A stretch of 64,000 nucleotides of DNA from Escherichia phage vB_EcoM_DalCa. Location: sequence record NC_054908.1; one strand, 5' to 3'. Made by a program: the position numbers and the translations under genes. Position 1 is the stretch's first letter; each line of letters starts with the position of its first letter. Positions 5,769-49,229 of the stretch are shown here, piece after piece. The notes beneath the pieces are model-generated. The model had not been told where the DNA came from and ran no database searches. It saw only the letters and a list, made by a program, of their open reading frames with translations.

Positions 5769-7319
5769 ATGACTATCAAAACTAAAGCTGAACTTTTGAA
5801 CAAATGGAAGCCATTACTGGAAGGTGAAGGTTTACCGGAAATTGCTAATAGCAAACAAGCGATTATCGCTAAAATCTTTGAAAACCAGGAAAAAGATTTC
5901 CAGACAGCTCCGGAATATAAAGACGAAAAAATTGCTCAGGCATTCGGTTCTTTCTTAACAGAAGCTGAAATCGGTGGTGACCACGGTTACAATGCTACCA
6001 ACATCGCTGCAGGTCAGACTTCTGGAGCAGTAACTCAGATTGGCCCAGCTGTTATGGGTATGGTACGTCGTGCTATTCCTAACCTGATTGCTTTCGATAT
6101 TTGTGGTGTTCAGCCAATGAATAACCCGACTGGCCAGGTATTCGCACTGCGTGCAGTATATGGTAAAGACCCAATCGCTGCTGATGCTAAAGAAGCATTC
6201 CACCCAATGTATGGTCCAGATGCAATGTTCTCTGGTCAGGGTGCTGCTAAGAAATTCCCAGCTCTGGCTGCTAGCACACAAACCAAAGTAGGTGATATCT
6301 ATACTCACTTCTTCCAGGAAACTGGTACTGTATATCTGCAAGCTTCTGCTCAAGTAACAATTAGTTCTACTGCAGATGATGCAGAAATTAAGAAACAAAT
6401 GGAAGCTGGCGCATTGGTAGAAATCGCTGAAGGTATGGCTACTTCTATCGCTGAACTTCAGGAAGGTTTCAACGGTTCTACCGATAACCCATGGAATGAA
6501 ATGGGCTTCCGTATCGATAAACAAGTTATCGAAGCTAAATCTCGTCAGCTGAAAGCTGCTTACTCTATCGAATTAGCACAAGACCTCCGCGCTGTTCACG
6601 GTATGGATGCTGATGCTGAACTGTCTGGTATTCTGGCTACCGAAATTATGCTGGAAATCAACCGCGAAGTTGTTGATTGGATTAACTACTCCGCTCAGGT
6701 TGGTAAATCTGGTATGACCCTGACTCCGGGTTCTAAAGCTGGTGTATTTGACTTCCAGGACCCAATCGATATTCGTGGTGCTCGCTGGGCAGGTGAATCC
6801 TTTAAAGCTCTGTTGTTCCAGATTGACAAAGAAGCAGTTGAAATTGCTCGTCAGACTGGTCGCGGCGAAGGTAACTTCATTATCGCTTCCCGTAACGTAG
6901 TTAACGTTCTGGCTTCAGTTGATACCGGCATTTCTTATGCTGCACAAGGTCTGGCTACTGGCTTTAACACTGATACTACCAAGTCAGTATTTGCTGGTGT
7001 TCTGGGTGGTAAATACCGTGTATATATCGACCAGTATGCTAAACAGGATTATTTCACCGTAGGTTATAAAGGTCCGAACGAAATGGATGCTGGTATTTAC
7101 TATGCTCCATATGTAGCTCTGACTCCGCTGCGTGGTTCTGATCCGAAGAACTTCCAACCGGTAATGGGATTCAAAACTCGTTACGGTATCGGTATCAACC
7201 CATTTGCAGAATCCGCTGCTCAGGCTCCGGCTTCTCGCATCCAGAGCGGTATGCCTTCTATTCTGAATAGCCTTGGTAAAAACGCTTACTTCCGCCGTGT
7301 ATATGTTAAAGGTATCTAA
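5769..7319 (+). CDS. 23: Major capsid protein gp23
   Basis: 516 aa; N- and C-terminal regions match T4 gp23 as I remember it; late promoter inside the 3' end of gene 22. Confidence 0.95.
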   Translation: MTIKTKAELLNKWKPLLEGEGLPEIANSKQAIIAKIFENQEKDFQTAPEYKDEKIAQAFGSFLTEAEIGGDHGYNATNIAAGQTSGAVTQIGPAVMGMVRRAIPNLIAFDICGVQPMNNPTGQVFALRAVYGKDPIAADAKEAFHPMYGPDAMFSGQGAAKKFPALAASTQTKVGDIYTHFFQETGTVYLQASAQVTISSTADDAEIKKQMEAGALVEIAEGMATSIAELQEGFNGSTDNPWNEMGFRIDKQVIEAKSRQLKAAYSIELAQDLRAVHGMDADAELSGILATEIMLEINREVVDWINYSAQVGKSGMTLTPGSKAGVFDFQDPIDIRGARWAGESFKALLFQIDKEAVEIARQTGRGEGNFIIASRNVVNVLASVDTGISYAAQGLATGFNTDTTKSVFAGVLGGKYRVYIDQYAKQDYFTVGYKGPNEMDAGIYYAPYVALTPLRGSDPKNFQPVMGFKTRYGIGINPFAESAAQAPASRIQSGMPSILNSLGKNAYFRRVYVKGI

Positions 7320-7333
7320 TCTTTGACGATTTA

Positions 7334-7366
7334 AGGGACCTTCGGGTCCCTTTAGTTGTTTTTATG
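7334..7366 (+). terminator. Rho-independent terminator after gene 23
   Basis: AGGGACC-ttcg-GGTCCCT followed by a T-rich run. Confidence 0.7.
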
Positions 7367-7367
7367 G

Positions 7368-7375
7368 TATAAATA
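7368..7375 (+). promoter_or_regulatory. Late promoter box TATAAATA for gene 24
   Basis: Exact TATAAATA between the gene 23 terminator and gene 24. Confidence 0.6.
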
Positions 7376-7402
7376 AATCATATAAACTGAAAGGAAAGCG
7401 CA

Positions 7403-8686: not shown

Positions 8687-8690
8687 AACA

Positions 8691-8716
8691 AAGGGACCTT
8701 TCGGTCCCTTTTTATT
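8691..8716 (+). terminator. Rho-independent terminator after gene 24
   Basis: AAGGGACC-tttc-GGTCCCTT followed by TTTT; overlaps the end of the rnlB continuation on the other strand. Confidence 0.7.
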
Positions 8717-8871
8717 TAACTTACCAATTCAATCCAAGCCGGACGAAGTACATCTTGTACCATTTTAACTAATTCCTTTTTAATCAAAGAAGGATTATCT
8801 GCTTGAGTTAGAGTAATACCTTCACGAGAAGTTTCTTCCAAAATATCTTGAACAGTTAGTCCCATCACCTT
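8716..8871 (-). pseudogene. rnlB: In-frame continuation of rnlB after the TGA: 51 further codons (KVMGLTVQDILEET...AWIELVS)
   Basis: Same frame stays open for 51 codons after the TGA; 282+1+51=334, the length I remember for T4 Rnl2. Confidence 0.6.
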
Positions 8872-9720
8872 TCAAAAATCCTTCGGACCAATTTCACCAA
8901 TTTTAGAAATAACGTTATTTACTCGGTTCAGTGTAACGTAGCAAGCTAAAATTCCCACCAATTTGTTATCAGCTTCTGATAGTTCAACTTTAGCTTTAAT
9001 AGGCTTATCAGACTTTTTCTTTTCACTAAATTTGGAATTCTTGCATTTGATGGCTACACGATTTCCATTATGAAGCCAAGAAGGACAACAAGGTTTCAAT
9101 ACATATCCTTCAGCGGTAAATACTTCGCCTTTGGCTTCAGCTTTCCAAACACATTTGTTAGCGTCAACTAATCCTGCATGGTCTACTGTAAAATTATAAT
9201 CTTGGACGACAGAATCTAAATCATTTGGCAATTTAATAAGCTCTTCAAATTTACCGCGACCTAAAAGTGGAGCCATTTTAAATTTAAATGTATTACAAAA
9301 TGATTCCATCATATAATCATCGACATAAGTCACATCACCACTTTCTGTAGTGACAATAATGTCAAATACATAAAAATCTTTATCGCCATAATCGACATTC
9401 TTCTGAATGCCAGGTCCAGCGAATTCGCCAAAGACTTGATAAGATACAACCGCTGAGGTTTCCATAATATCTTGTACTGCTTTAATAGAATCTTCGTAAT
9501 TCTTTAGAATAATTTCATACCCAAAGAAATCTTCAGCAGGAAGAATTGGTCCAGTACGTTTAGCGCAAGTTACTTTATCACGCTCAATAATCAATGAGAA
9601 ATTTGTGCCGTGAATCTTTTCACGAGCTACCCACTCCCCACCAGTCAATCCCAAGCTATAAAGTTTTTCAATAAATTTAGAGTTGTAATGATTTTCAAGA
9701 CTGCTATACTTTTTAAACAT
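8872..9720 (-). CDS. rnlB: RNA ligase 2 (Rnl2), N-terminal 282 codons ending at an in-frame TGA
   Basis: Motif I lysine at residue 35 (EKIHGTN); position downstream of gene 24 region; ORF stops at TGA 8872-8874. Confidence 0.85.
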
Positions 9721-9729
9721 AATTAATCC

Positions 9730-10008
9730 TCAAAATGTAATTTCTAACCAATCACCATCACGCTGATCACTATTGACTTTAAAGCTGAATCCTTCTTTTC
9801 TCAGCCAATCACCAATTTCTTCAGTAATCAATTTATCACGAGCAATACAATAATAACTAAAATGTGTTTTACCTTGTTCAGCTGCTTTATTAGCAAGTTC
9901 CGAAAAATCTTTAATAAAACATTCTAGTTTAAACTGTTTACTTTTAAGTGCTTTTTCTCGCAATTGATTAGCAAAAGATTCATTTTCATAAAGATCATAC
10001 TGTTCCAT
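9730..10008 (-). CDS. Hypothetical protein (T4 24.2 position)
   Basis: 92 aa ORF in the minus-strand early block between rnlB and hoc. Confidence 0.6.
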   Translation of the reverse strand: MEQYDLYENESFANQLREKALKSKQFKLECFIKDFSELANKAAEQGKTHFSYYCIARDKLITEEIGDWLRKEGFSFKVNSDQRDGDWLEITF

Positions 10009-10299: not shown

Positions 10300-11715
10300 T
10301 TATGGATAGGTATAGATGATACCAGTTTCTAAAGCAGTTTTATGAATGATGTATCCATTACGCGATTCTTGGACATCAACTTCTGGATAGTCTTTAATCA
10401 TCTTCTGAAGAGTGTAACGATGCAGGTAGTATTTACTATCTGGGTCGTCAGTTTTCCAATCTTTACCTTCTTCGGTCATTTTTTGGATTTCATCCATAAC
10501 CCACCAACCGCACCAGATATAAGCTGAAGTACGATGTGGAAGAGGATGAACATAAGGTAGTTCACCTTCTGGTTCAATTGGAGTCCGTTCAGCAATAACA
10601 ACTTCAGCTGTTGAACTAATTGTCTTTGAAGTGTAATTATCTTTAGTTAATACTGCTTCAACTTTAATTGTATGAGTACCCGCTGAGGAGGTATCAATAC
10701 TATAAGTATTAGTAGAATTACTTTCTGCTACGTTGTCTTTCTTCCAAGAGTACACAATATTAGTATCACCAGGAGCACCAGTAACAGATGCTGTTAAAGT
10801 TGCAGTTCCACCAACAGTAGTATTAACTGATGGCGGAGATAAAGAAATGGTGGCACTATTAAATGTCGCATTATTAGTTACTACTGTTGCTTCTGCTGAA
10901 ATTTCTTTTGTAACATAATTTGTTGCAGAAACAGATGCGGTGCATTTAAGAGTTTTACTTCCGACTTCGGTCGGAGTGAATTTATACGTAGCAGAAGTTG
11001 CATCCGGAATATTACTGTCATCCATTGACCATTGGAATGTTATAGTAGCACCTGAAGGTGCACTAGAGACATTTGCAGTTAAAGTAATAGGAACACCAAA
11101 GACTGTAGTCGGAGACTCGGGTGTAATTTTTAGCGTCGAAGAATTAGCCTTTTTATTTACAGTCAAAGAAACCGCTGATGATTCTACTGTTTTATCAACG
11201 TAATCAGTTGCAGTCACTGTGACAGAGCAAGTTATAGACTTAGTTCCTTCAGTTGTTGGTGTATATTCAAAGGTTGATTGCTTTTGACCGTCAACATCGA
11301 CCCCGTCAACTTTCCATGTATAATCAATAGCAGCACCAATAGGTTGATTGCTTACATTAGCAGTGAATGTTGTTGCTGTTCCAATTTCTACTGCCGCAGG
11401 AGAAGCCGGAGTAACAGTGATAGTGGAATTATTTTCTTTCTTATTAACAGTGATAGTTGTTGATGCTTCAGCTATTTCCGGATCTCCTGCGGAAAGTGTA
11501 TTAGTTGCAACCACTTTAATTTTTTTTGTTCCTGCTGGAGAAGCAAGAGTATAATCCATTGTAGCAGCCGTAGAGCCCTGTGTTATATCATCTACAGTCC
11601 AGACGTATGTAATAGTACCGTCTGGGGTTTCACCTGCAGGTGTAGCAGTGAATGTTTGTGAACCTCCAATAACCCCTGTAGGAGTTAGAGGAGATAACGT
11701 GACAGTGAATGCCAT
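10300..11715 (-). CDS. hoc: Highly immunogenic outer capsid protein Hoc, four tandem Ig-like repeats plus C-terminal domain
   Basis: 471 aa; repeated ~95 aa units with T.TA...I.Y.W..D pattern; W-rich C-terminal domain; position next to inh. Confidence 0.85.
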   Translation of the reverse strand: MAFTVTLSPLTPTGVIGGSQTFTATPAGETPDGTITYVWTVDDITQGSTAATMDYTLASPAGTKKIKVVATNTLSAGDPEIAEASTTITVNKKENNSTITVTPASPAAVEIGTATTFTANVSNQPIGAAIDYTWKVDGVDVDGQKQSTFEYTPTTEGTKSITCSVTVTATDYVDKTVESSAVSLTVNKKANSSTLKITPESPTTVFGVPITLTANVSSAPSGATITFQWSMDDSNIPDATSATYKFTPTEVGSKTLKCTASVSATNYVTKEISAEATVVTNNATFNSATISLSPPSVNTTVGGTATLTASVTGAPGDTNIVYSWKKDNVAESNSTNTYSIDTSSAGTHTIKVEAVLTKDNYTSKTISSTAEVVIAERTPIEPEGELPYVHPLPHRTSAYIWCGWWVMDEIQKMTEEGKDWKTDDPDSKYYLHRYTLQKMIKDYPEVDVQESRNGYIIHKTALETGIIYTYP

Positions 11716-12405: not shown

Positions 12406-12418
12406 AATATTTCCTCAG

Positions 12419-12426
12419 TATAAATA
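12419..12426 (+). promoter_or_regulatory. Late promoter box TATAAATA for uvsW
   Basis: Exact TATAAATA 30 bp upstream of the uvsW ATG in the divergent inh/uvsW spacer. Confidence 0.55.
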
Positions 12427-12455
12427 TAGATATATTTATTACATGGTATTTAGAC

Positions 12456-15152: not shown

Positions 15153-15179
15153 ATTATACCACGTTTTAACGTGAAGCAT
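15153..15179 (-). promoter_or_regulatory. MotA-dependent middle promoter for uvsY (MotA box ATGCTTCAC, 12 nt, TATAAT)
   Basis: TGCTT core of the MotA box consensus about 12 bp upstream of an extended -10 (TGgTATAAT), 40 bp before uvsY. Confidence 0.55.
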
Positions 15180-22873: not shown

Positions 22874-24931
22874 CTACATTTTGAACTTTTTAGACATTCC
22901 GTTAATGTTAACCAAAGAAGCTAAGATTTGAGAAACTTCATTTTCCTCTTCTTTTGATTCTTCTACAAGGAATTGATTAAATCCAGCCATTGGACGAACT
23001 TCACCAGTTTCCATTAGATGGTCTCCATCATATACTGATTCTTCTAATTGTTCAGAAGGAGGAACGATTGTACCTTCGATTAGATACTTGTTATAAGCAG
23101 TTTCTTTCATAAAGTACGTACTTACTTTATTAATCTTCAGTAAAATTCCACGTGGTAGAATAACTTCAGCTTCTGATGGAAATCCTGATAAATGACCCGG
23201 AACGATAACTTTGATTCGCTCAGCTCCTTTAATTACCATACCCACGCTAGTTTCAGCATCTTCATTAGCATATGTAGAATGACTACCCATATGCATCAAA
23301 TCTTCTGCATCAACAGAACCTTCTCCTTCGCCAGAAAATACTGCACCGGAATCATCTAGAGCCATATAGTTTTTACCATGCTCACCGAAGATATTTGGTT
23401 TAAGTGATGTCGATACGAAGTTCTTGAAATAGAACATTTTATTTTCAATATTGTGACGCAAAGTTTTAAAGGTAACTTCTTGTCCACGGTAAAGTGTAGT
23501 TCCTGGAGGAAGAACTGAACCTTTAGCGAATGCAGAATCCAGCGTCTCAATATGTTTAATAGCTCGTTCCATATATTCTTCACGGGTAGAATCTGGTTTA
23601 CCCAAAAGGAACGAGTTCATTTCAACATATGAATCTGCACAATAATCTTCAATTACGTCAGATTCAGCCTGAGTTAATCCTTTTGGAGTTACTTCAGTAC
23701 TTGCATATTCATATGCCTGAGCGGCAGATTCATTAATCAATTTATAAATGCCATTCATGACAAATTGAATAATAGCTGTCTTTTCATCTGGCGTAGCTTT
23801 AGAACCTTTAACTAAATCATTGACAATTTTCTTAATAACATCAAAACTATTAGAAATATTAATATCAGCAAGATCGCTTAAAATTTTATCAGTTTTATAA
23901 TCAAAGAATTCTTTATTCTTTAAATATTCTTGAGAACCTTGATATGTTATATCGCTCTGCAGCTTGATAGATGGATCGCGTAAACGTGCATGGGCCAATG
24001 CAATATGATTTCGGAAGTTTTCTAGTTCATAATCGTTAGATTTAAAACGAGAAGCACTTCTCATACCACCGATAGCTCCTTTGCTAAAGTTTGAACCAAT
24101 CTGAATAACGCCAGAGTTCATCGGACCTTCTGCTTTATATACCGGAACTTTAGATTCAAACTCTTGATATTTCTTGGCAGCAAAGCTATCACCCTGAAGT
24201 GAAGCATCAACAGTAGAATATTGAGCTTGTGCTGCTAATCGACGACTTATTTTAGTTTTCTGAATAACAGCTTGGTCCGTGCGCTTATCATTTTCTAAAG
24301 CAATAGAAGCAGCAACAGCGACAGCTTTAGGAACAGCATTTCCTGTTTTAACGTCTACATAAACATCACCGACCTTTGATTCAACTTTTGTGAATAACTC
24401 AGTTGAAATAGGAGGTACACCTGGAATGTCTTCTAAATTGGCATTTTTACGGTAAACCATAATATATGCATATTTCTTATCATAGTCCCAGATTTCCTTT
24501 AAAAGAACATATCGACCTGCTCCTTTAGTACGTACTAAACGGTCAGCAATAACTTGCATTTGACGAGCTGCGCCATTTGTTTTACTTTTTAGTACGCGGA
24601 ATAGGCATGCGTCGATTTTATACTGTTTCATTGTTTGAAGAGCAGTATCAAAAACGGCATTAATGACACCAATTGGATTTCCACCCAAGTTTCTAAGTTT
24701 AACCAGTGATAGTTTCTCATTAACACCTATCATTACGATATGCATCATTTTATCGCCTGGCTTAACGTTTTTATTCGTATCACCACCAGAGGTGTATGTA
24801 CAAAATCTAAATCCAGGAAGCACGCTTTCTTCGCCGGCTTGAATAGCAAAAATTTGTGGTATTTTATGCTTAGGATTTAAGTTAACAACCGGCGCCGAAG
24901 CGCCGTCAAATAATTCTGTAATAAGTTCCAT
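22874..24931 (-). CDS. Alt-like mono-ADP-ribosyltransferase paralogue (685 aa)
   Basis: N-terminus MELITELFD... near-identical to the neighbouring Alt; R-S-E motifs (TLYRGQ, FVSTSL, EAEVILPRG). Confidence 0.8.
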   Translation of the reverse strand: MELITELFDGASAPVVNLNPKHKIPQIFAIQAGEESVLPGFRFCTYTSGGDTNKNVKPGDKMMHIVMIGVNEKLSLVKLRNLGGNPIGVINAVFDTALQTMKQYKIDACLFRVLKSKTNGAARQMQVIADRLVRTKGAGRYVLLKEIWDYDKKYAYIMVYRKNANLEDIPGVPPISTELFTKVESKVGDVYVDVKTGNAVPKAVAVAASIALENDKRTDQAVIQKTKISRRLAAQAQYSTVDASLQGDSFAAKKYQEFESKVPVYKAEGPMNSGVIQIGSNFSKGAIGGMRSASRFKSNDYELENFRNHIALAHARLRDPSIKLQSDITYQGSQEYLKNKEFFDYKTDKILSDLADINISNSFDVIKKIVNDLVKGSKATPDEKTAIIQFVMNGIYKLINESAAQAYEYASTEVTPKGLTQAESDVIEDYCADSYVEMNSFLLGKPDSTREEYMERAIKHIETLDSAFAKGSVLPPGTTLYRGQEVTFKTLRHNIENKMFYFKNFVSTSLKPNIFGEHGKNYMALDDSGAVFSGEGEGSVDAEDLMHMGSHSTYANEDAETSVGMVIKGAERIKVIVPGHLSGFPSEAEVILPRGILLKINKVSTYFMKETAYNKYLIEGTIVPPSEQLEESVYDGDHLMETGEVRPMAGFNQFLVEESKEEENEVSQILASLVNINGMSKKFKM

Positions 24932-24934
24932 GAT

Positions 24935-26992
24935 TTATCCTTGAACGAACTTGTAAGGCATGTTTGCAATATCTATACAAGACGCAATAATTCCAAGAGA
25001 TGATTCTACTTTCTGTTTAACATTTGATGAAACAAATGATGCAAAGTCAACTCTGTCTTCTACTTCAATATCACCTGTCATTGCAACCAATTCACCAGTT
25101 TCCATTAAATGGTCTCCGTCATAGATTACCGATTCGGTGAGCTCTTCCGTGGTCATAACTTCAGCTTGAATAAGCTTGTTGTTAGTTTTAACTGTTCCAT
25201 CATTGTAAGATGCATCAGTTATTTTATTAACTTTGACCATTAATCCACGTGGCAAAATAACTTCCATTTCATTTGAAGGCGCTAAACTTCCACCGGGTAA
25301 AACAACATTGACTTTATCAGCCCCAGTAATAACCCATCCAATTCCGACTAAATTATCGCTAGAATTAACAAGCCCTTCATCATTTTTATCGATAGAAATG
25401 TTTAGACGCTTTTCATCTGGTAAAACACCAACAGCTGAATCAGTCATCCAAGTACCAAAAATGTTTGGATATAATGATGTTGATACAAAATTTCTAAAAT
25501 AAAAAACTCGATTTTTTACCAATGCTTCATATATTGAAGGTAACATTCGCTGTGAACGATATAAAGTAATACCTTTTGGCAATCGATCACCATTTTTAAA
25601 GGCTGAATCTAAATTATCAATAGCTTTTTCTATGTCAGATGCTGTCAAAATACTTGTACGCTCATCTGGATTATATAATCCCAAAAGAGCATTATTTATG
25701 TCTACATATCCTGAACCTACGTATTCACGAATTCCGCGTTTTTGTGCTGGTGTGTATTTAGATGAATCTTTATTTTCGACTATAGGATGTAATGACCATC
25801 CAGCTGTAAGAGCATATCCACGTAATTCTCTTCGAATAATCTTTGTTTTTATTGCATTCCAAGAATTTTGTACTAACTCATTTGCAGCATCTTGGTTTAA
25901 ATGCGAATGTTTGTTAATATTTCTTTCAAACCAAGCACCTTTATATTTTTCTAAAGTATCATCGACGATAGAAGCAATAGTTTCTAAAGTTTTTATTGAA
26001 GTAATAGATTCTTTTCGTAATTTTTCTAAAGCTTTATTTTTTATTTCTGCATTAATAATGGATTCTTTATCTTCAGGAATTATAGAAGCTTCTCTGAATG
26101 CCATCCCAGCTGTAACACTGCTAAGAGCATTCTCTAGTGCAAATCCTGAAGTAGAAATTACCGTTAATTCATTAGAATCAGAAATTAAAGGCGCGTCCGC
26201 TGGTTTATTTAATTCTGCCGCTGAAGCCTCAAATTTTTGAAACATCGGTGTTTCAAATCTAGAAGATTCCAATGACTGACTTTGTGCAATTGCTCTACGG
26301 GAAATTTTAACTTTAACGATTACAGCTTGGTCAGAACGTTTATCATTTTCTTGTGCAATAGATGCTGCAATTGCCTCATTTTTGGTTACTTGAGCTCCGG
26401 TATCTTTATTGATATAAACATCACCGACCTTCGATTCAACTTTAGTAAAGAGCTCGGTACTAATTTCCGGAACTCCTGGAATGTCTTCTAGTGATACATT
26501 TTTGCGATGTATAAGAATATATGCATACTTTTTATCATAATCCCAGAGTTCCTTAAGAAGGACGTATCTGCCACCTGAACGACTACGGATAAGTCTATCA
26601 GCAATAACTTGAATTTGTCGAGCTTGACCAGCGGTTTTAGACTTAAGAATACGAAGCATACAAGCATCAATTTTATACTGACGCATTGTTTGCATTGCAA
26701 CAGTAAAAACTGAATTGATATAATTAATTGGGCTTGGACCAAGACCTTTTAATTTAGCAATTGAACCTTTAGCAGTTAATGTAAAAGGAACAATATGCAT
26801 CATTTTATCGCCCATTTTTAAATCGCGATTAGTATCACCTCCAGATGTATAGGTACATAAACGAAAGCCTGGTTGTTCAATTGCATCATCAACATGAACT
26901 GAAAAAATTTGCGGTATTTTCTTCTTTGGATTTAAGTTTGTAATCGGAAGAGTAGTATCTTCGTCAAATAATTCTGTAATAAGTTCCATCAT
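24935..26992 (-). CDS. alt: Alt ADP-ribosyltransferase (685 aa)
   Basis: N-terminal packaging-type sequence MMELITELFDEDTT...; R-S-E motifs (TLYRSQ, FVSTSL, EMEVILPRG); adjacent to gene 30. Confidence 0.8.
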   Translation of the reverse strand: MMELITELFDEDTTLPITNLNPKKKIPQIFSVHVDDAIEQPGFRLCTYTSGGDTNRDLKMGDKMMHIVPFTLTAKGSIAKLKGLGPSPINYINSVFTVAMQTMRQYKIDACMLRILKSKTAGQARQIQVIADRLIRSRSGGRYVLLKELWDYDKKYAYILIHRKNVSLEDIPGVPEISTELFTKVESKVGDVYINKDTGAQVTKNEAIAASIAQENDKRSDQAVIVKVKISRRAIAQSQSLESSRFETPMFQKFEASAAELNKPADAPLISDSNELTVISTSGFALENALSSVTAGMAFREASIIPEDKESIINAEIKNKALEKLRKESITSIKTLETIASIVDDTLEKYKGAWFERNINKHSHLNQDAANELVQNSWNAIKTKIIRRELRGYALTAGWSLHPIVENKDSSKYTPAQKRGIREYVGSGYVDINNALLGLYNPDERTSILTASDIEKAIDNLDSAFKNGDRLPKGITLYRSQRMLPSIYEALVKNRVFYFRNFVSTSLYPNIFGTWMTDSAVGVLPDEKRLNISIDKNDEGLVNSSDNLVGIGWVITGADKVNVVLPGGSLAPSNEMEVILPRGLMVKVNKITDASYNDGTVKTNNKLIQAEVMTTEELTESVIYDGDHLMETGELVAMTGDIEVEDRVDFASFVSSNVKQKVESSLGIIASCIDIANMPYKFVQG

Positions 26993-36015: not shown

Positions 36016-36016
<1 letters not shown>
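35819..36016 (-). CDS. Hypothetical small protein coupled to the pseT stop
   Basis: About 65 aa from the ATG that overlaps the pseT stop (TAATG); the track ORF starts further upstream inside pseT. Confidence 0.45.
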
Positions 36017-37216
<1,200 letters not shown>

Positions 37217-44078: not shown

Positions 44079-44295
44079 ATTGTTTTTCCGTTAAAACAGT
44101 AATATCGTAGTAACAGTCAGAAGAAGTTTTAACTGTGGAAATTTTATTATCAAAATACTCACGAGTCATTTTATGAGTATAATATTTTTTGCCATAAATG
44201 ATAATAGGCTGATTTGGTCCTGGAACTTCTAGCTCACTTGGATTAGGAAGTGTAAAAAGAACAACGTCAGAAGTATCTTTAAATCGTAAAATCAT
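44032..44295 (-). CDS. Hypothetical small protein between td and nrdA
   Basis: 87 aa ORF overlapping the td stop by 4 nt. Confidence 0.5.
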
Positions 44296-45152
44296 ATTGC
44301 CATTTTCCCTTTAATTGCTGGATGCGATTCATAATTTTCAAGGATAAAATCTTTCGGTTTCATGTATTCAGTTAACCAGTAAAGCTGTGTTTCGGTGTCA
44401 CAATTTCCAAACTCTATAGGCCAATCAATTTTAAGTTCACATAGTTCTTTAGGCTCACGACGTAAAATTTCTTTACATTGCTCAGTATGATTCATATAGA
44501 TGTGAGTATTACCACCAGAAAATATCAAATCTCCTGGGATAAGATTACACATCTTAGCCACAATATGCGTCAAGGCAGCGTACGAGGCAATGTTGAATGG
44601 CAATCCCAAGAAAACATCTACACTTCTTTGGTACCATTGTAAATCAAGATAACCATTACGCACATTAAACTGATAGAACATATGACAGGGCGGTAATGCC
44701 ATTTGATTGATTTCAGCTGGATTCCATGCTGAAACGATTTGACGTCGATCAGTTGGTAATTTTTTAATACGATCAATAGTTTCAACTAATTGATCCACAC
44801 CGCCGAAATCACGCCATTGTTTACCGTATATAGGACCAAGTTCACCACTATGATATCCTAGGTCTTTAGCCTGGTTTTCATAGTTATCGTCCCAAATAGT
44901 TTTACCTTGAATAAGACTACCATGTGTGCGAAGACGTAAATCATTAACATTGGTAGAACCGGAAATAAACCATAGAAGCTCAGCAATGCATGCATTCCAC
45001 GCAAGCTTCTTAGTTGTTACCGCAGGAAAACCTTTAGTTAAATCCCAACGTAATTTAGTACCGAACAAAGCAATTGTTCCTGTGCCTGTTCGGTCATCGG
45101 TTTCATAGCCATTTTCAAAAATGTCTTTAATTAAATCTTGGTATTGTTTCAT
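44292..45152 (-). CDS. td: Thymidylate synthase, uninterrupted
   Basis: 286 aa continuous ORF; active-site region [10 protein letters not shown]. Confidence 0.95.
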
Positions 45153-47567: not shown

Positions 47568-48476
47568 TTAAAGGTCATTCAAAAGGTCATCTAGGTCCGT
47601 GTCATCAGCACTAGATGAACTGCCAGAGCTTGAGCTCATAAAATCATCTTCAGTTTTTGTATTGAAGTCATCAACATTGAATGCATCCAAATCATCAGCA
47701 ACTTTATCAGCTTTCTTAGCAGCAGTTGCAGCAGCACCGCCCATCACAGCAGTTCCCATAACTTGACCGAATTTAGTGCTCAGTTCTTCAAACGATTTGA
47801 ATTTATCTTTAGAAGTCATTTCAGAAAGGTCAACCATTTGTTCGAACAGTTCTTTCTGGAAAGATTCATCGTCAATGTTTGGAATCGCAGATTGATTCAG
47901 GAATTTAGATTCGTCGTAGTTACTAAATCCAGAAACCTGTTTAACTTTCAGTACAAAGTTAGCACCTTCCCACGGACAAGTTACATCAACCGGAGTTTCA
48001 CCCATTTCAACATCAACTGCAATCATTGCGTTGATTTTATCCCAGATTTTCTTACCGAAACGGTATTTAAATACTTTACCTTCATTTTCTGGAGCAGCTG
48101 GGTCTTTTACTACAAGAATGTTAGCCCAGTAAGAAGTTTTACGTTTAACAAGACCGTACTCTTTATTGTCAGTGTTATACAAATCATTTTTACTGATGTA
48201 CTGACATACTGGACAAGAATCGTAATCACCGTGGGTAGATGAACAGTTTTCAATATACCATTTACCATTTTTCTTGAAACCGTGATTTACAAGAATTGCG
48301 AATGGTGCTTGTTCATCATTTTTAGACGGAAGAAAACGAATTACTGCTTGACCGTTACCCGCATTGTCGAGTTTCAGTTTCCACTCGCCTTTATCTTCAG
48401 AAGAAAAACCACCTTTATTTCCAGCCAGTTTAGCCATTTGTGCAGCGAGTTCAGCAGTAGATTTACGTTTAAACAT
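47568..48476 (-). CDS. 32: Single-stranded DNA-binding protein gp32
   Basis: 302 aa; acidic Ser/Asp-rich C-terminus; pseudoknot-like leader upstream; strong terminator downstream. Confidence 0.95.
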
Positions 48477-48508
48477 TTTTATTTCCTTTTTAATTTAATT
48501 AACAGTTG

Positions 48509-48543
48509 GTGCTATGACGATGTATGACCTCATAGCTGGTCAG
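48509..48543 (-). promoter_or_regulatory. Gene 32 mRNA leader pseudoknot-like element (translational operator)
   Basis: Minus strand UGACC-AGCUAUGA-GGUCA-uacaucg-UCAUAGC: two interleaved stems, followed by an A/U-rich stretch to the ATG. Confidence 0.55.
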
Positions 48544-48550
48544 TGAGGTA

Positions 48551-48576
48551 ATTATAATCTATTTATAATAAGCAAT
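48551..48576 (-). promoter_or_regulatory. Gene 32 promoter cluster (MotA-box-like ATTGCTTAT, TATAAATA and TATAAT)
   Basis: Minus strand reads ATTGCTTATTATAAATAGATTATAAT upstream of the gene 32 leader. Confidence 0.5.
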
Positions 48577-49229
48577 TAATACCTACAAGATTTCACAGTT
48601 TCAATGAAAACACTTTTAGCTTTCTGTGAATCAATATTTAAAATTTTTCTATAAGCCTTTAACTTTATAGAATAATTATTCCAGACTAAATTATCAGTCT
48701 GTTCATCATGTTTATCAATTATATTTAAAAACGAATCAAGCAAGATAAACGTTTCAAACGAAATTATATTCGATTGAAGTAGTTTAAAAATATAACTTGA
48801 TTGAACTTTTGGATTATACTCAAAGATTTCTTTAAAAGCAGAAACTTCAACTTTTTTACTAAAATAATAAATGTTGCGAATATCTTCTTCAAACTTAAAT
48901 TTAATTTGCTTTAAGCGTCCGATATATTCACGATAAAACACAAGTGCATCAGCGTCAGAGATGTCACCAATCCAAGCATCTTGGTTAGCTACAAGATTGC
49001 TAATAAAAATTAAAGTTAATTCTTTTAATTTATACTTTTCTGATAGCTTTTGGAAAAAATACTTATCCCTTCGCTTTTGATAAGCGGCATCAGACACCCG
49101 CATGCACCAATTATACTTAATTACATCATACTTTCCATTCATATGTTGTTTTATCATTAAGTATAATTTATAAACTGATTTACCATCAATGTATCTTTCA
49201 CCACCAGCAGGCATGCGGAGTTTAATCAT
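48576..49229 (-). CDS. 59: Helicase loader gp59
   Basis: 217 aa, same length as T4 gp59; order 59-32. Confidence 0.9.
   Translation of the reverse strand: MIKLRMPAGGERYIDGKSVYKLYLMIKQHMNGKYDVIKYNWCMRVSDAAYQKRRDKYFFQKLSEKYKLKELTLIFISNLVANQDAWIGDISDADALVFYREYIGRLKQIKFKFEEDIRNIYYFSKKVEVSAFKEIFEYNPKVQSSYIFKLLQSNIISFETFILLDSFLNIIDKHDEQTDNLVWNNYSIKLKAYRKILNIDSQKAKSVFIETVKSCRY

Follow-up and report, generated by a model that had tools for sequence, protein, structure and literature searches.

The window, a 64,000-nucleotide stretch of Escherichia phage vB_EcoM_DalCa (NC_054908.1), is part of a T4-like coliphage genome of the genus Tequatrovirus, and over the whole region it is matched best by Escherichia phage Pinarejo (98.3% over 25 kb). 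Genes 23, 24, rnlB, 24.2, 24.3, hoc, inh and uvsW follow one another in the order seen in both T4 and Pinarejo, so that the RNA ligase 2 (Rnl2) gene, rnlB, lies between gene 24 and 24.2/24.3/hoc as its T4 ortholog (gene 24.1) does. Phages of this group nearly all carry the gene: 651 records match over 80% or more of the query. In the window it occupies positions 8716-9720 of the minus strand, and its 334 codons run collinear with those of T4 Rnl2, the sole break being codon 283, where the frame meets a TGA. The features of the locus are as follows.

9728 to 9731, minus strand: GAGG Shine-Dalgarno sequence of rnlB, assigned from the sequence, 7 nt before the ATG; it overlaps the TGA stop of gene 24.2 and is the same in Pinarejo.
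8872 to 9720, minus strand: truncated rnlB frame with an ATG start, 282 codons and a premature TGA, from the ORF list and translation.
9601 to 9621, minus strand: motif I, E34-K35-I-H-G-T-N40, with the AMP-accepting Lys35, from the translation; invariant in 29 homologues.
8872 to 8874, minus strand: premature opal codon TGA replacing Gly283 (GGA in relatives), in the context GAT TTT TGA AAG, that is, UGA followed by A.
8716 to 8871, minus strand: orphaned 3' part of rnlB, residues 284-334, comprising 51 sense codons and the original TAA (8716-8718).
8690 to 8711, no strand: GC-rich hairpin flanked on either side by T runs, in the gap where gene 24 and rnlB converge, terminator-like on both strands.

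As judged from the DNA, rnlB has kept its expression signals, both the predicted ribosome-binding site and the hairpin terminator that follows the gene. The late promoter consensus (TATAAATA) does not occur on the minus strand near rnlB, and sigma-70-like matches in the vicinity are at chance level, so no promoter was assigned.

A preliminary description of this DNA had identified the minus-strand ORF 9720..8872 as rnlB from its motif I lysine at residue 35 (EKIHGTN), and had reported 282 codons ending at TGA 8872-8874 followed by 51 further open codons to a TAA. All of these coordinates and counts hold, and the identification is confirmed by translation, by alignment with T4 and by Pfam. The sum 282 + 1 + 51 = 334, which had been matched to the full length of T4 Rnl2, agrees with T4 rnlB (NC_000866) at 1005 nt, or 334 codons plus the stop. 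The conceptual product of 334 residues can be aligned with T4 Rnl2 (PDB 2HVQ, E = 6e-223) over its full length, with ∼98% protein identity, and the 51 residues past the TGA, for which a comparison with T4 residues of about 284-334 had been proposed, are identical to T4 residues 284-334. The two sequences differ in the stop in place of Gly at 283, in a Cys for Tyr at 212 and, as a predicted consequence for the primary product, in the loss of residues 283-334.

The catalytic part of the enzyme is encoded in full. Besides motif I (KxHGxN in the Rnl2 family), the other nucleotidyltransferase motifs Ia (R55), III (E99), IIIa (F119, D120), IV (E204, K209) and V (K225, K227) are all present and invariant in the alignment, and the Pfam RNA_ligase domain (PF09414) spans residues 29-226 with 81.8 bits against a cut-off of 27. 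[quoted passage not shown] Profile positions 2-38 of 82 correspond to residues 246-282 of the ORF, which stops there, and positions 40-81 lie past the TGA; since both halves of the profile are matched, one in the ORF and one in the tail, the tail is homologous sequence and not a chance open frame. The DNA therefore still encodes the whole helical C-terminal domain (residues 244-329), although no longer in one polypeptide. Motifs, domains and synteny place the gene in the Rnl2 family, and its predicted primary product would lack the complete C-terminal domain of that family.

In comparison with five aligned relatives, codon 283 has changed from GGA to TGA, a transversion of G to T in the coding strand. 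Among 29 full-length homologues with identities as low as 55%, Gly283 is invariant, as are V285, G287, T289, D292, E296, E300, K314, R326 and W329 downstream of the stop. Structure prediction for a 99%-identical full-length homologue places the C-domain helices at residues 249-259, 264-274, 279-299 and 310-333, so that the TGA falls in the first turn of predicted helix 3 and the orphaned part encodes the greater part of helix 3 and the whole of helix 4. One of the readings offered in the preliminary description was a ligase lacking most of its C-terminal nick-binding domain. A truncation of that domain is indeed what the sequence specifies, but "most" overstates its extent: the stop removes 47 of the 86 C-domain residues (244-329), or ∼55%, equivalent to helices 3 and 4 of four.

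Over a 1251-nt region, the window differs from its closest relative at four bases. Two of the differences are synonymous, one is the GGA to TGA change at codon 283, and the last is a TAT to TGT change at codon 212 (Y212C).

9085 to 9087, minus strand: codon 212, TGT (Cys) against TAT (Tyr) in all relatives; the other private change in rnlB.

Position 212 is free to vary across the family (Y/F/S/V/N/K/I/R in homologues). An 81-mer around this change has an exact match in none of 435 phage records.

The TGA may be present in the phage itself or only in its deposited sequence. The substitution turns TTTTGG into TTTTTG, that is, T4G2 into T5G1, at the boundary of two homopolymers, the typical form of an artefact in signal-based base calling. 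Were it such an artefact, the true genome would have GGA at codon 283 and an intact rnlB. The distribution of the allele is compatible with this. A megablast search with an 81-mer centred on the TGA against 50,697 phage records gave 323 matching records, none of them identical and the best having one mismatch; 14 of 14 close relatives have G at the mutated base; and codon 283 is GGA in every one of the 13 other contigs reached via the window's exact Hoc protein that covers the position. Exact 24- to 28-mers with the TGA likewise have no match in three collections of viral, genome and metagenome contigs, among which the viral contigs are a weak control (the wild-type 24-mer was found in one contig only), leaving the phage records as the meaningful denominator. 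An exact-protein look-up returned no record of the 282-residue product. We note that the 51 codons downstream carry no damage, as would be the case after a sequencing or assembly error; the same lack of any private change in the orphaned tail indicates, for a real mutation, that the stop is recent.

The quality of the surrounding sequence argues in the other direction. When ∼90 annotated Pinarejo proteins were mapped onto the window, an internal stop was found in rnlB only and no frameshifts were found, so the assembly does not have the look of an error-prone one, and a real, recent nonsense mutation is the likelier source of the TGA. Y212C, the other private substitution, is 212 nt distant and off any homopolymer. 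Among 6,753 positions at which 12 or more relatives could be compared, the only private bases of the window are these two (G283stop and Y212C), and under the error explanation two errors in 6.7 kb would have had to hit one gene. Both change the protein, and the chance of both landing in rnlB is ∼0.02, an enrichment calculated from two events only. A synonymous change at codon 58 was dropped as a third private change, as it proved to be shared once more relatives were compared, and Hoc M440I is not private. Independent rnlB lesions in other phages, described below, also make a real inactivation plausible. Taken together, we assign a probability of about 0.72 to a real, recent nonsense mutation confined to one lineage, in rnlB as an accessory gene of a T4-like coliphage. 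That the mutation is real in one sense or another, with all readings other than error combined, is very probable, and a sequencing or assembly error is unlikely, though it retains appreciable weight. Truncated ligase, partial readthrough and sequencing error had been put forward side by side in the preliminary description; a real nonsense allele now emerges as the most likely of these, an error is less likely, and a basal leak is expected that is unlikely to be functional.

In an ordinary host using code 11, translation would end after residue 282 and give a main product with a computed mass of 31.8 kDa. This product would keep the entire adenylyltransferase domain and C-domain helices 1 and 2, and it would lose helices 3 and 4 and with them Asp292, which forms a salt bridge with Arg266. 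The R266-D292 salt bridge seen in the crystal structure is described as holding the Rnl2 C domain together (PMC4599027). D292 lies beyond the premature stop; our literature search found no mutational data for Asp292 or Arg266. The N domain of T4 Rnl2 (1-243) can on its own carry out ligase adenylylation (step 1) and form the phosphodiester where the end is already adenylylated (step 3), whereas step 2 and nick binding depend on the C domain (244-329; PMC3884662, PMC3149579).

The best available model for the behavior of the natural product appears to be Rnl2(1-249), with which it would share a retained adenylyltransferase domain and the absence of a working C-terminal domain. Rnl2(1-249) is the engineered "T4 RNA ligase 2, truncated" that is used in adapter ligation; in published work it keeps steps 1 and 3 and loses step 2 and nick binding (PMC3884662, PMC3149579). 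The natural product comes from mutation and not from design, and it would carry 33 more residues (250-282, C-domain helices 1 and 2) that are possibly unfolded or destabilizing. By analogy with Rnl2(1-249), the 1-282 product would retain self-adenylylation (step 1) and the joining of 5' ends that are already adenylylated (step 3), and would be defective in binding nicked duplexes and in transferring AMP to the 5' phosphate (step 2); its activity and stability are extrapolated here, as it carries half a domain, unlike the characterized enzyme. At best, the natural product would behave like laboratory Rnl2(1-249), and it may be unstable. We infer that it would be essentially null for the sealing of RNA nicks, or unstable, and that the stop probably disables RNA ligase 2, a non-essential enzyme.

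The downstream frame is intact, and we therefore considered whether the stop could be read through to a useful extent. Of the stop codons, UGA leaks most in E. coli, and an A after it makes misreading by tRNA-Trp especially likely (PMC5289835). In reporters, premature TGA codons are read through at levels from <1% to tens of percent, according to context and conditions, with insertion of Trp (PMC11126739). At the UGA-A of rnlB, a small share of ribosomes would insert Trp and yield a 37.7 kDa full-length G283W protein. Such a protein would have Trp at an invariant Gly, and its activity is doubtful; because Gly283 is invariant, the expected basal leak is unlikely to be functional. The proposal that the codon is leaky enough, whether by tRNA-Trp misreading or by an opal suppressor tRNA of the phage or host, to supply useful full-length ligase, perhaps beside a truncated isoform, meets the same difficulty at the start of helix 3 with Trp, Cys or Arg as the inserted residue. 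The local sequence gives it no further help. The flanks of the TGA are identical to those of relatives carrying GGA, so no readthrough signal has evolved around it, and TGA terminates 28 of the window's 85 conserved genes; ten of the 28, among them gene 24.2 just upstream, are ordinary genes ending in TGA-A. No relative has the allele, and hence there is no sign of selection for TGA. We consider functional readthrough to be a slim prospect.

Programmed readthrough is a more specific proposal, to be recognized by conservation of the stop and the downstream frame among relatives and by a stimulatory element, a SECIS, a suppressor tRNA or a reassigned code. The TGA is found in 0 of 323 phage records and 0 of 14 close relatives, and within the window none of these elements is present: there is no SECIS or other Rfam element and no tRNA gene, the T4-type tRNA cluster of the phage being outside the window. 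Reassignment of TGA to Trp is ruled out by the 28 genes that end in this codon. Selenocysteine or another structured recoding signal is likewise ruled out, as there is no Rfam match and the flanks match those of the GGA relatives. The TGA allele is a private nonsense mutation of the ordinary kind in a very well known gene, and not a recoding device or a new mechanism.

The same frame also offers a possible point of re-entry for ribosomes immediately after the stop.

8863 to 8868, minus strand: in-frame GTG and ATG, a putative restart 3 and 6 nt past the stop, with AAGGA 10-13 nt upstream; from the GTG start the ORF runs over 8716 to 8868.

Restart at these codons would give a C-terminal peptide of 49-50 residues, which could be imagined to reassemble non-covalently with the 282-residue fragment and so rebuild the C domain. 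The AAGGA and the two start codons are what recommend this split enzyme. They are, however, the same bases as in intact relatives (e.g. Pinarejo), where GTG and ATG are ordinary codons, so the putative restart is not an evolved signal. The break would moreover fall within the predicted helix 279-299 and not in a loop, and such a split is without precedent or conservation, with fragment complementation unsupported. Restart at the GTG or ATG is conceivable but unsupported, and a functional split enzyme is close to negligible in likelihood.

A related proposal is that the stop is maintained for the sake of two products, either an abundant truncated Rnl2 for pre-adenylylated ends accompanied by a little readthrough nick-sealing ligase, or fragments that reassemble after restart. 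Three of the five natural rnlB lesions (the E246 stop, the frameshift near 272 and the G283 stop) spare the catalytic domain, which would be consistent with selection for a form without the C domain. Maintenance of the stop for two products is nonetheless very improbable in our estimate.

The nonsense allele is best viewed beside the other disruptions of rnlB that we encountered. HY03 has a 1-nt deletion in codon 113 that shifts the frame; vB_EcoM_ACG-C40 (NC_019399) has TGG changed to TGA at Trp215; Logan contig ERR15324756_390 has an ochre codon, GAA to TAA, at Glu246; and protein cluster P0072 has a 285-residue product whose C-terminal end is as expected from a 1-nt deletion near codon 272. 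Two further clusters are without the N-terminal part. The four lesions resemble that of the window in being independent disruptions of rnlB in otherwise intact genomes, and differ from it in site and in mutation. In ACG-C40 the opal codon replaces a Trp codon and readthrough with Trp would recreate the wild type, whereas in the window it would give G283W. The differences in rnlB among relatives are mostly synonymous. This pattern of lesions fits a gene that is useful in nature and dispensable on many hosts.

The phage would be expected to tolerate the loss of rnlB because no essential role of Rnl2 is known. The separate tRNA-repair pair of Pnkp and Rnl1, which counters the PrrC anticodon nuclease, is encoded by pseT (301 aa, 36016-36921, minus strand) and rnlA, both of them intact in the window. 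In Pinarejo, pseT (locus L007 3313-4217) is annotated as two CDS of 129 and 169 residues, which suggests a lesion there. The role of Rnl2 in T4 infection is itself unknown (PMC3884662). The G283 stop adds a new natural nonsense allele to those of one of the best-characterized phage enzymes, and alone it matters little. Together with the four other independent lesions it indicates that Rnl2 has been lost repeatedly in otherwise intact T4-like phages, which fits a conditional role in infection. A pair of phages differing at codon 283 alone would be a tool with which to seek the host or defense system where Rnl2 matters. For annotation, rnlB should be recorded as a disrupted gene and not as two proteins.

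Several other features of the window deserve mention. Bases that differ from all five relatives compared there are found at 6124 (gp23 S119N), 15249 (gp25 F110C), 15167-15168 and 15202; the gp23 and gp25 changes are non-synonymous and lie in structural genes. All of these bases come from a five-genome comparison and may not be truly private. The homing endonuclease genes of T4 or of close relatives are absent, these being segD, from the gap between genes 23 and 24 (7320-7402), segE, from the gap between inh and uvsW (12406-12455), one gene from the gap between genes 32 and 59, and, from the gap between the tail sheath and tail tube genes, a Pinarejo CDS of 216 residues whose function is unknown (∼48476-48579 and ∼1344-1458 for the last two gaps). 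The thymidylate synthase gene td (44292-45152, minus strand) is a single uninterrupted ORF of 286 codons, and Rfam finds no group I intron anywhere in the window. The td intron is thus apparently absent here, in contrast to Pinarejo, where td is annotated in two pieces. Two Alt-like ADP-ribosyltransferase genes of 685 residues each stand in tandem on the minus strand (22874-24931 and 24935-26992), with a mutual identity, taken from cross-matches, of only ∼41%. Hoc (10300-11715, minus strand) has 471 residues as against 376 in T4 (1131-nt CDS). The long form is also present in Pinarejo, and near-identical forms of 472 residues occur in U115 and KarlGJung, whereas ESh30 and Elenatom have Hoc of T4 length; the additional length is probably one extra Ig-like repeat.
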